Shown in pieces: positions 24,301 through 28,276 of a DNA stretch of 28,276 bases; position 1 is the stretch's first letter; every line of letters starts with the position of its first letter. The stretch lies in the IMG/VR virus record IMGVR_UViG_3300032303_001862, positions 1 through 28,276 of that record; one strand, 5' to 3'. The notes below the pieces were generated by a model. It saw nothing but the letters and a program-made list of their open reading frames with translations, ran no database searches and was not told the DNA's origin. Both the position numbers and the translations under genes were made by a program. This DNA comes from a virus. Taxonomy: Duplodnaviria > Caudoviricetes.

Positions 24301-27300
24301 GATTATTGGATATTCGTATCTTCCAATGAACTCCTCTGAGATGGAAATTAATCATACTGCGTCAGGCGGTGTTATTACTCGATATTTAATTAGTACGGTT
24401 GAACATACTACTATTACCATCAACGGACAAAACGTTCTTAGATTAAATTTAAGTACAGCAGGTACCAATAGTACAGCTACTACTGGACTTGCTTATGGAT
24501 TGTATGACGGGCAACTTGTAACATTACGTGTTACTCAAAATATTAAATTTATTAAAGTTGATAACGTTAAACCAACTAGACCTAGTACTGCGGTTCAATA
24601 CGTAGATAACTTATCTTCAATATATCGAATTATTGCTTACAATCTAACAGAAGCAACTGGAGAATTATTGCCTGCTAACACAGCAGTTCTTCAAGCTGAT
24701 AGTACTTTTGCATTTTATAGCTTCACTACTGATGGTGGAAATTTAACTCAAGTTGATCCTGGAGATCCTACTAGAACCCAGGGAAGCAAAATAGGTGATA
24801 ATAAAATTGCAATCTTGCAAATTAGTTTACCTACTACAGTTAATCAAATTAATAAAGGAATTTATCTATTTGGTTGGGCCGGTCGTGTGCATAGAATCAC
24901 TGGATATACCGCTCCAACCTTTATTGCTACAGGAGCATTTAGCACTTATAATGCTGGCACATTGACTTTAGTGGTCACCAGCGTTGCTGGTACCATTCTT
25001 CCAGGAATGGTTATTAGTGGAACAGGATTTAATGGTACACAAACAGTATCAACTGTTACAACCAGTGGTACAAGTACAATTACTGCTACCGTTATCTTGA
25101 GTGGGGTAGCATCTGGTTCACCGGCGGGTACTGTGACATTTGGTGTGGCTAAAAATGGATATTTAAGTATTGATCCGAATCCGGTCTTTAACAATTCTGC
25201 TGACGGAACTGCTGTAAATGCCATGACCTATAGCAGTTCAACAGCTGGGCCGACTGGAACAACATATACTTCAGTAACCTTTAATATTCCGTTCGCCTCA
25301 GTACAACCATTAACGGATAGTTACTTAACAGTTACTGGACAAACTACTTCCAGTTATAACGGCAACTATCAAGTGATTGCTGTTACTAATCAAACAGTTA
25401 TTTCAATTGCTGACGTATCAACTCTAGCAGTTGGCATGATTGTGACAACGACCGACACGGCGGCTAACATACCAACTAGTTGCATTATACAATCTATTAA
25501 TAGTGGGGCTAATACATTTGTTGTTAGTCCGGCTGCTTGGATTCCAGCAGGCACTGTTATTAGCGCCACAGCCGTGGCAACTCTAAGTAGTATTACCATT
25601 ACCAGTGCTGGTAGCAACTATACTACAGTACCAGTTATTACAATTTCAGGTGGCGGCGCATTAAATCAAGCTATCGCAACTTGTACTATATCAAATGGTT
25701 CGATCGCTAGTATCACTATTGTCAGCCCAGGCTATGGATACACTAGCCAACCTACAATTAGTTTAAGTTATGGTAATGGACAGTTGACCGCTGTATTAAC
25801 TGCAAGTCCAACTGTAAGCCCGACAGTTCAAGCAGGTGTAAATACCACCCAGCTGACCTTGGCATATCCATCAAACCCTGGATCATTTACCGCAGGACCC
25901 GTTACTACGCTAACTAGTTTTAATACTAAAACAGGAACAGGTCCATATTCAGTAAAATTCAATGCCACGGTGGGTACGCTATTGGCTGCGGGCAGTTGGT
26001 ATTATGTTTCGGGCAATAGCAATAATTTATACAATGGATTTTATCAAGCGACTGGTATATATTCGGGAACTGCTACTGCCACTAGTTCTAGTGGCAATAC
26101 TGTAACATTAAGTTCTGTTGTTGGGCTGACTGTAAATAGTCCGATACAATTTACCTCAGGTTCGCATGCGGCTGTTACATTAACTCAAACTAATGGTGCT
26201 AACAATCAATTAACTGTAAGTTCAACTGCTAATTTAGTAGTCAACGAATCATTAATATTTACAGCAGGTACTCAAAGTACAACATTAACCGGTTCTGCGA
26301 CCGGCACTAATTTGTTAACGCTGGCCAGTGTAGCCGGTATGAGTGTTAATGAACCAATTATATTCACAGCCGTAACACAGACTCCGAGTTTAACCAGTGT
26401 GGCAACCAGTGGGAATATAATTACTCTAAGTAATAGTACAGGCATTGCACTAGGACAAAGTATTATATTTACTGCGGTTACTCAAAGCGGTACTTCAACA
26501 GCCACTGCAAGCTCGGGCAATGCTATTACATTAAACAGTGTCTCGGGATTGATTGCTGGCGAGCCTATCGTGTTTACTGCGGCAGCTACTGCCGCTCCGA
26601 CTATTACTGCTACCACTACCGGTTCTAATCTTGTTACATTAAGTAGTGCCACAGGCATAGCACAAGGTATGAGCATTATACCAACTGCCGCTATACAAAG
26701 TACAAGTGCTACTGTTAGTACTAACGGTACGTTTACTACTAGTGGTTCAAGTATAAGTGGTACAACACTTACCATTGGTACTGTAGGTTCTGGAACAGTT
26801 ACTATAGGTGCTGTTATTAGTGGTGGAACTATTCCGGCAGGCACATACATCACTGCTAACATATCAGGTAGTGGTGCAGGCAGTACATGGACTGTAAATC
26901 AAACAGTGTCACAAGGAGCAACAACAATCAGCGGAACTATTAATCTAGTCACTGTTGGAACTGTTTCAGGTATGGTTGTTGGTGAACCGCTAGTTACAGG
27001 TGCGTCAGGTGCAGGTTCTTCAGGGATTGCTACCAGCACAACCTACTATATTACTAAGATTATCTCTGGAACAAATCAAATTGGTATTGCATTAACTTAT
27101 GGTGCTACCACTGATGCAACACTAGTCTCAGCATCCGGCCTAGCATTAGGGATCACAGCTGGTGGTACGCTTGGTGGATTAACTTCGGGTTCAACCTACT
27201 ATATCGCTTCTGTAAGCTCTAACAATGTAACACTAAGCACTAGCCCAACACTAAGCCCTGTGGTTACATTATCAAGTGCCAATGGCTCATGGACTACACT

Positions 27301-28276
27301 GGCTGGGTCAATATTTGGCGGATTAACTTCGGGTTCAACCTACTATGTTAATACTATCGGTGCTAGCAGTATCACTGTCAGTACAGTTTACAATAGTGGA
27401 ACAGCATTTACCCTAACCAATGGAGTTAGCGGCCCGGCAGGCTGGACATGGACTGCTGGTGCAGGCATCGGTGGATTAAGTTCAGGAACACCGTATTATG
27501 TATTGACCAACAATACCGGTACTAATCAAATCACAGTTAGTACAGCACCAGGGGGCGGAGTATTTACTATTACCGGCAATGCCGCTGGGGCATGGACATC
27601 CGTTGCTGGATCAATATTTGGCGGATTAACCAGCGGACAAACTTATTATATTTGTCAAATTAATAGTGGTGCTAACACTATCCAAGTTGCTACCACAGGC
27701 GGTAGCATTAGTCCGATTAGTTTGGCCACCGGAGCAGGCGCATGGACTGCGGTTGCTGGTAGTAGCATGGGCGGGCTAACTGCCGGCGTACCATATTATG
27801 TTAAGACCATTGTTGACAGCACTCATATTACTGTCAGTGCCCAATACAACGGTGCAACCCAAGTTGTAACTAGTGCTGGAGGTAATTGGTCTAGTGTTGA
27901 TGGTACAGTTATGGGTAATATTGTTGAAGGTACAATATACTATATCAAGAGTTTAGCAGGCGGAAATGCTATCACAATTAGTGGAACGATTGGGGGAGGT
28001 ATAGCGGGTACTGTGTTTAATCAAGTGGATGCAACTATTTCAGCTACATGGAATTCAGGACCTAGCGATAGCATAACACTAACATATCCATACAATCCAG
28101 GTACTTATGGCACAGGTGTTACTACTGTCCGCCAAGAAACAACAAGTGGTTCTAGTACAACACTGGGTATTGCGCATCCATTCAATCCTAGTACTGCTTA
28201 TAATATTCGAGCTGGTTACCCGGCCAATGAAGGTGCCCAGGTTACTACACGTATTAGTACATGTCGTGCTACTGGA
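18329..28276 (+). CDS. giant virion structural protein (tail/baseplate appendage), at least 3316 aa, 3' truncated by window
   Basis: Starts [35 protein letters not shown] (T4 gp9/gp10-like N-terminal motif) after SD GGAG. The same frame reads sensibly wherever checked and ends ...[10 protein letters not shown] at 28276. Its absence from the track is consistent with no in-frame stop. Confidence 0.88.
19463..23560 (+). repeat. seven degenerate helical protein repeats (..I.DA..YD...GGN..S..A...Y)
   Basis: Repeat cores begin at 19463, 19664, 20075, 20993, 21470, 23042 and 23465, all in the giant ORF frame. Confidence 0.75.
26069..28060 (+). repeat. two tandem arrays of half-domain repeats (35-aa units followed by 48-51-aa units)
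   Basis: Units start at 26069, 26174, 26279, 26384, 26489 and 26597, then at 27164, 27308, 27461, 27611, 27761 and 27905. A 27-nt sequence is identical at 27176-27202 and 27320-27346. Confidence 0.85.

Follow-up and report, generated by a model that had tools for sequence, protein, structure and literature searches.

Towards its 3' end, the phage DNA described here encodes six copies of one short repeat, then a single longer unit, then six copies of another repeat, an order which raises the question of how such a chain might fold. The stretch analysed (the window) comprises 28,276 nt, positions 1-28,276 of the Caudoviricetes record IMGVR_UViG_3300032303_001862. The original prediction held that the two repeats are the N- and C-halves of one domain and that each domain is inserted in the preceding one. 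Our reading of the sequences, to which we assign a probability of about 0.82, is that this nest would form seven barrels in a row, each composed of an outgoing and a returning half, with both chain ends at a hairpin of the host domain.

The six N-halves, the unsplit unit and the six C-halves were all found in one plus-strand ORF, the strand on which every feature given below lies. Profile and motif reading places the outgoing array, N1-N6, at 26069..26704, with N-halves of 35-36 amino acids that start at 26069, 26177, 26282, 26387, 26492 and 26600. Their N.[IVL]TL cores are separated by 108, 105, 105, 105 and 108 nt, so that the predicted 105-nt spacing stands but with two periods of 108 nt rather than a single one. 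At the turning point of the nest lies unit 7 (26705..27163), recognised by its motifs and modelled above pLDDT 70, whose halves are contiguous and which, as anticipated, holds an inserted domain of its own. This 71-residue module (26726..26938) enters a different loop, before the second strand; relatives have 141-225 residues here, and no part of the nest varies more among them than this innermost insert. The returning array, C6-C1, was delimited by the same profile and motif reading at 27164..28060 and consists of C-halves of 48-52 residues, the GG motifs of which begin at 27173, 27317, 27470, 27620, 27770 and 27914, a period of 144-153 nt. The number of C-halves is thus as predicted, but position 27905, given earlier as the end of the array, is approximately the start of the last C-half, which ends near 28060. 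Tandem Repeats Finder detected nothing in the nest DNA, and Pfam, applied to the ORF and to pieces of it, gave no family above cutoff within the nest.

The ORF that carries the nest has 3316 codons (18329..28276) and is open at its 3' end, running past the end of the window; complete relatives are 3958-4363 amino acids long. Its residues 4-52 (18338..18484) form a T4 gp9/gp10-like N-terminal segment, matched by phrog_677, phrog_958 and PF07880, the last with 28.4 bits against a cutoff of 25 and over profile positions 2-50 of 175 only. Comparison of the ORF with PHROG further yields phrog_4527 (short tail fibre, E 4e-25) and phrog_5342 (tail fibre, E 2e-16), and tail-fibre-like proteins of the T4-like cyanophages S-SSM7, S-CAM1 and S-CAM3 weakly match the upstream flank of the nest (E ~1e-6 to 1e-7). 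This giant carrier protein, encoded by an uncultured freshwater phage, is likely part of a tail fibre or baseplate. Two further modules resembling the inner insert of unit 7 are found in the window at 20333-20563 and 24920-25144, the former interrupting a helical repeat and missing from most aligned relatives. Upstream of the ORF, a second structural-type gene (13542-14801) has PHROG virion and tail-fibre matches. Judged by their translations, genes in 16-18325 resemble those for a Bax-inhibitor-type membrane protein, ClpP, an ATP-dependent DNA ligase, radical SAM enzymes, QueD, a UV-damage endonuclease, a superoxide dismutase and an IscA-type protein.

The nest has no match in a set of 50,697 phage records, and no cultured phage there contains it. 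Run X2, an independent freshwater metagenome from another study, carries 25800-28276 gap-free on a single contig; it differs there by 22 substitutions, which alter 21 codons, 14 of them silently. Since this stretch is intact in X2, the nest is not an assembly artefact of one sample. Across four metagenome runs, compared as contigs, which lose rare variants, the nest stretch showed no joints or indels; the data sets listed as containing it include none of RNA.

The predicted splitting of a host domain by the nest, and of a sister domain upstream, was confirmed through four host motifs, at 26000, 28070, 25325 and 25850. The first part of the host domain lies at 25940..26056 and its last strand at 28070..28102. 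About 670 residues separate the YNGFY and L.Y..[ND]PG strands of the host in the window, whereas in L001, L020 and L045 the domain is unsplit and the one strand runs directly to the other; by this comparison, the 670-residue block is an insert in one loop of the host domain. The sister host domain, of which unsplit copies occur in L009, begins at 25265..25390 and ends with the strand at 25844..25882. Its insert (25391..25843) combines one unsplit, divergent barrel unit with a phrog_460-like module (E 4.5e-11) and is conserved in 12 aligned relatives.

Homologues of the nest were gathered through a scan for its flank and through protein searches. The upstream flank is present at 79 viral loci, with best-segment identities of 48-93%; as a direct query, the nest itself finds one locus in viral contigs and one in metagenome contigs. 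That an N-half and a C-half together make one domain is borne out by unit 7 and by the relatives, since half profiles place the two next to each other, as an unsplit unit, 308 times among the proteins retrieved, with an effective number of 213; a separate tally of unsplit units gave 221. In relatives, nests have several locations (L057, P0019, P0027). That of L057 (~12300-13100), three deep, interrupts the host domain used in the window too, though in another loop, which coincides with the midpoint of the host itself; this host was therefore entered by nests on no fewer than two occasions. In L077, residues ~560-950 of a long ORF hold a separate nest of five N- and five C-halves, assigned by eye to a different half subfamily, which lies inside another module of that protein region.

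Equal numbers of N- and C-halves were expected in homologues. After curation this is what was found in 60 of 61 nests, with depths of 3, 4, 5, 6, 7 and 13, whereas uncurated HMM counts over whole proteins agreed in just 19 of 68 rows. Read by eye, the raw mismatches comprise missed divergent N-halves, unsplit units elsewhere in the protein and matches to related inner modules. Curation of 18 proteins dropped 12 profile matches and added three, after which 18 of 18 nests parse as balanced brackets, two branched layouts of seven units, ((((())(())))) and (((((())))())), among them. Throughout this curated set, runs of N following N and of C following C always enclose an unsplit unit. The 61 nests combine the set of 18 with 47 further or overlapping members mapped onto 13 representatives, plus L057, and many are close kin (99% identity for P0005 and P0114); some eight of their layouts are independent. 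Left out were truncated sequences (P0055, P0058, P0059, P0060, L012), the unparsed P0043, L077 as belonging to another subfamily, and shallow or mixed cases (L061, L074, L078, P0057, P0061, P0062, P0064 and most other unit-rich proteins). The sole exception to balance, P0028, has five N- and six C-halves, exactly 34 residues being missing between two identical 13-residue stretches, while its cluster mate P0113, about 97.5% identical, has six of each. The imbalance may reflect a collapse during assembly or an unbalanced allele that exists in nature.

With mirror pairing, similarities among N-halves should track the similarities of their partner C-halves. For 54 non-tip units from 10 proteins, nested pairing gave correlations of 0.56 within and 0.31 across proteins (p 0.0005 for each, 2000 permutations), parallel pairing giving 0.18 and 0.02 and random pairing 0.23 and 0.08, and the nested signal repeats in three other protein sets (p 0.0005-0.0095). 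Taken singly, three of seven proteins give significance (pooled p 0.0005). Within the window by itself, the nested pairing comes 11th among 720 and the parallel one 276th; the 13-deep P0005 has r 0.63 (p 0.0004) and P0027 p 0.03, the non-significant results being those of P0004 (p 0.30), P0009 (0.52), P0015 (0.40) and P0022 (0.09). The only N-half of the window that ends in I-P-T faces, under nested pairing, the only C-half with T-L-x-P, and in the pooled set the association of N- and C-motifs is significant for nested pairs (38/5/4/7, p 0.001) and not for parallel ones (p 0.69). Couplings trained on unsplit units behave alike: for the top 50, nested pairs reach z 2.2 and 4.0 (p 0.016 and 0.0002), whereas parallel pairs, at z 0.8 and -1.3, are not above random. 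With all column pairs, the nested p values are 0.08 (first set) and 0.004, and two of the top couplings are in antiparallel register. These covariation tests show partner identity, to which shared ancestry of the partners and physical contact both contribute; together with the unsplit units and the balanced counts, they give the predicted nesting in mirror order good support at the sequence level.

The anti-diagonal contacts between partner halves anticipated from AlphaFold were not reproduced. The whole nest, modelled with an alignment of 13 sequences, gave pLDDT 44 and pTM 0.24, with the N array unstructured and the C-halves as separate hairpins (pLDDT 55-67) matching SH3/OB-like folds at Z up to 4.7. 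Modelling without the C array (pLDDT 41.5) left the N array at 30-44 with almost no strands and unit 7 at 73-76, this unit being the only part above pLDDT 70 in both models. Independent folding of each array, which would have spoken against nesting, appears at low confidence for the C-halves, which form their own hairpins, and not for the N array; as this is unstructured with or without the C array, the prediction gives neither nesting nor an independent N-array fold. AlphaFold having returned no nesting, the fold proposed here is drawn from sequence.

For the unit itself, a profile of 46 unsplit units matches the coat protein 2m5s (E 0.0014), residues 254-309 of the P22 coat protein (2xyy, E 0.014) and also 8gn5. 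In the 2xyy alignment, six extra residues of P22 fall exactly at the N|C cut. Structural comparison of the partly confident unit 7 model returns a list dominated by one barrel type, with weak scores (Z no more than 5.0): the phage tail-tube accessory domains 9n71_B (Z 5.0, rmsd 2.9, 64 residues aligned) and 9jlf_E (Z 4.7, rmsd 2.9, 66 aligned) are followed by 4p22_B (Z 3.6) and 9mc4_A (Z 3.5; E1 residues 225-295), the E1 and EF-Tu barrels lying at Z 3.1-3.6. The Atlas neighbour of the unit is PF16190 (E1_FCCH) at 0.92, while recognition of the whole nest in an Atlas search was below threshold. PF16190 itself, at its cutoff of 29.5, matches neither the window nor the 46 unsplit units, and its best score among relatives is 26.2 bits (P0043); nor does any other Pfam family reach its cutoff for these units. 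A phmmer search of unit 7 against the PDB and a Foldseek search with the control model (E 0.001) gave no match. Together, profile and model suggest a weak resemblance of the unit to the P22 coat I-domain/E1-FCCH barrel. Barrels of the P22 I-domain, E1-FCCH and EF-Tu type consist of two pseudo-symmetric three-strand halves. The N- and C-halves of the nest are themselves faintly alike, with an hhalign probability of 25% (E 7.5e-4), compared with 0.26 and 0.32 in reversed controls. The P22 I-domain is, in the part of PMC9962691 that describes it, an inserted domain of residues 222-345, thus containing 254-309, and an FCCH barrel is placed on the outside of phage tail tubes in an excerpt of PMC13576161. 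Like these, the unit would be an inserted, surface-exposed accessory domain; unlike the nested unit, they occur once and unsplit.

Equal counts and mirror covariation in relatives make it likely that folding takes the chain outward and then back, in a Russian-doll arm. N1 would pair with the last C-half and N6 with the first, each domain having some 80 residues. It would form a barrel of six strands, of the P22 I-domain/E1-FCCH/EF-Tu domain 2 type, with the cut falling after strand 3 and before strand 4. Since the halves are weakly alike, a cut in the middle would offer two further chain ends, equivalent to the real termini but on the opposite face of the barrel, where a new copy could slot in without limit, either in line or, with two copies per loop, as a branch. 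The row of seven small beta-barrels would then stand out from the giant protein as a side arm of ~15-20 nm, if each barrel adds 2-3 nm. Some 210 residues of N-halves would have to await partners synthesised as many as 600 residues further on, so that folding is expected to start at the tip and proceed outward. The arm may bear its variable innermost module from the baseplate to the host surface; for such presentation we see about even odds.

One challenge to a single-chain nest retains the mirror register and has the halves pair between the chains of an oligomer, or swap strands between neighbouring levels, as a braided stalk. Covariation is blind to the distinction between pairs within and between chains, and the single-chain AlphaFold model did not fold. 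The protein begins, moreover, with its gp9/gp10-like segment, and the T4 gp9/gp10 proteins are trimers. Partial domain swapping is likewise described, in an extract of PMC11515920, for the Si3 insert of cyanobacterial RNA polymerase. We nevertheless consider a braid improbable: unit 7 and the 308 natural units are unsplit on one chain, the host, in a short hairpin of which the nest sits, has to close within a single chain, and the branched layout ((((())(())))) is simple on one chain and awkward between chains. Less likely still is an arrangement in which each array folds by itself, as a beta-solenoid, a ladder or a string of SH3-like hairpins, with counts kept equal by shared history or by matching of lengths. 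Eight different layouts that balance and parse as brackets, the enclosure of an unsplit unit by every same-half run of the curated set, the specificity of covariation for mirror order and the lack of structure of the N array in both AlphaFold models all argue against it, the points in its favour being the local hairpins that the C-halves make without N-halves and the unbalanced P0028.

A different objection accepts the single-chain nest and concerns function only: the arm might be a dispensable decoration or spacer, with inserts accumulating because the barrel tolerates them. This would be compatible with the architecture, and we rate its chances somewhat short of even. L001, L002 and L005, whose flanks are the most similar to that of the window (74-75%; L001 75%), are ~3290 residues long and have no nest; nests occur at more than one site; and the barrel adorns tail tubes and capsids elsewhere, as the relevant portions of PMC13576161 and PMC9962691 describe. 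However, every one of the 15 sequences in the clade of the window keeps depth 7, at identities as low as 44% (44-63%), which, with the mostly silent changes in X2, points to selection on the block where it is present, and it is the innermost insert that varies most.

Constancy of depth within clades also means that the proposed fibre, originally described as length-tunable, would be so only over long times: depths range from 3 to 13 between lineages, but within the clade depth stays at 7, and with nest-free relatives at the nearest flanks, close comparisons show gain or loss of the whole cassette. Additional levels would come from the entry of an entire unit or from offset recombination that affects both arrays, with loss of any unbalanced product. 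The exact repeats among C-halves, earlier taken as signs of recent recombination, are present. One of 27 nt (27176..27202, second copy at 27320-27346) joins the first two C-halves, its length being reached in 0 of 1000 synonymous-codon shuffles; the other, of 20 nt (27308..27327, second copy at 27611-27630), is equalled in 15 of 1000. P0002-P0004 carry different residues at the site of the 27-nt repeat, which fits local conversion between two C-halves. Since it has no counterpart in the N array, it is no evidence of paired length change, and the proposal that recent recombination drives changes of length, with one significant repeat confined to the C array, is unsupported.

Recursion of homologous domains is a rare design, whose published examples come chiefly from a cyanobacterial RNA polymerase. 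In Si3 of the cyanobacterial RNA polymerase beta' subunit (RpoC2), HABAS/hybrid-motif domains are recursively arranged in six levels and eight domains, with branch points and partial swapping, according to excerpts of PMC13114784 and PMC11515920. The likeness lies in homologous small beta domains inserted into one another. Si3 differs in fold and in protein and is irregular, interdigitated and partly swapped, whereas the phage nest regularly reuses one loop, in a phage structural-type protein, with a depth that varies between lineages. Membership of the Si3/HABAS family was considered for the nest and rejected, its host being gp9/gp10-like and tail-fibre-like, not an RNA polymerase. Contractile tail sheath proteins of the T4 gp18 type, described as 'Russian doll' in a passage of PMC6088184, also have domains inserted in one another, but these are two to four unlike domains in fixed number, with no repeat and no half arrays. 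A 2026 survey that covered 2.7 million classified domains (PMC13114784) has six levels as its deepest recursion; with depths of 7 in the window (more if host and inner insert are counted) and 13 in P0005, the nest family exceeds this by reusing a single module and a single loop. No description of self-nested barrels in phage fibres was found in the main texts of the open-licence literature.

The nest would be a type of repeat overlooked by standard tools (Pfam, Tandem Repeats Finder, AlphaFold). It provides a natural scaffold from which to make rods and branches that keep their two chain ends at the base, and it gives the phage a removable cassette for adding an arm to a structural protein. 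A wider claim, which we think has equal chances of holding and of failing, is that freshwater jumbo phages use a self-inserting barrel as a bracket grammar, the second pair of chain ends at the midpoint cut allowing single-chain rods and forked trees of any depth (3-13 seen) to be built, in a repeat class whose units close hundreds of residues away and are missed by tandem-repeat and fold-prediction methods.

The unit also occurs in other settings. P0073, P0076, P0093, P0106 and P0109 have up to ~20 copies, mostly in tandem and with two-deep nests mixed in. In the group of P0015, P0021 and P0022, 500-600 residues of other small modules lie between the levels of the nest, and in P0015, P0022 and many proteins related to them the N-terminal part is unlike that of the window, with CBM_5_12 repeats.
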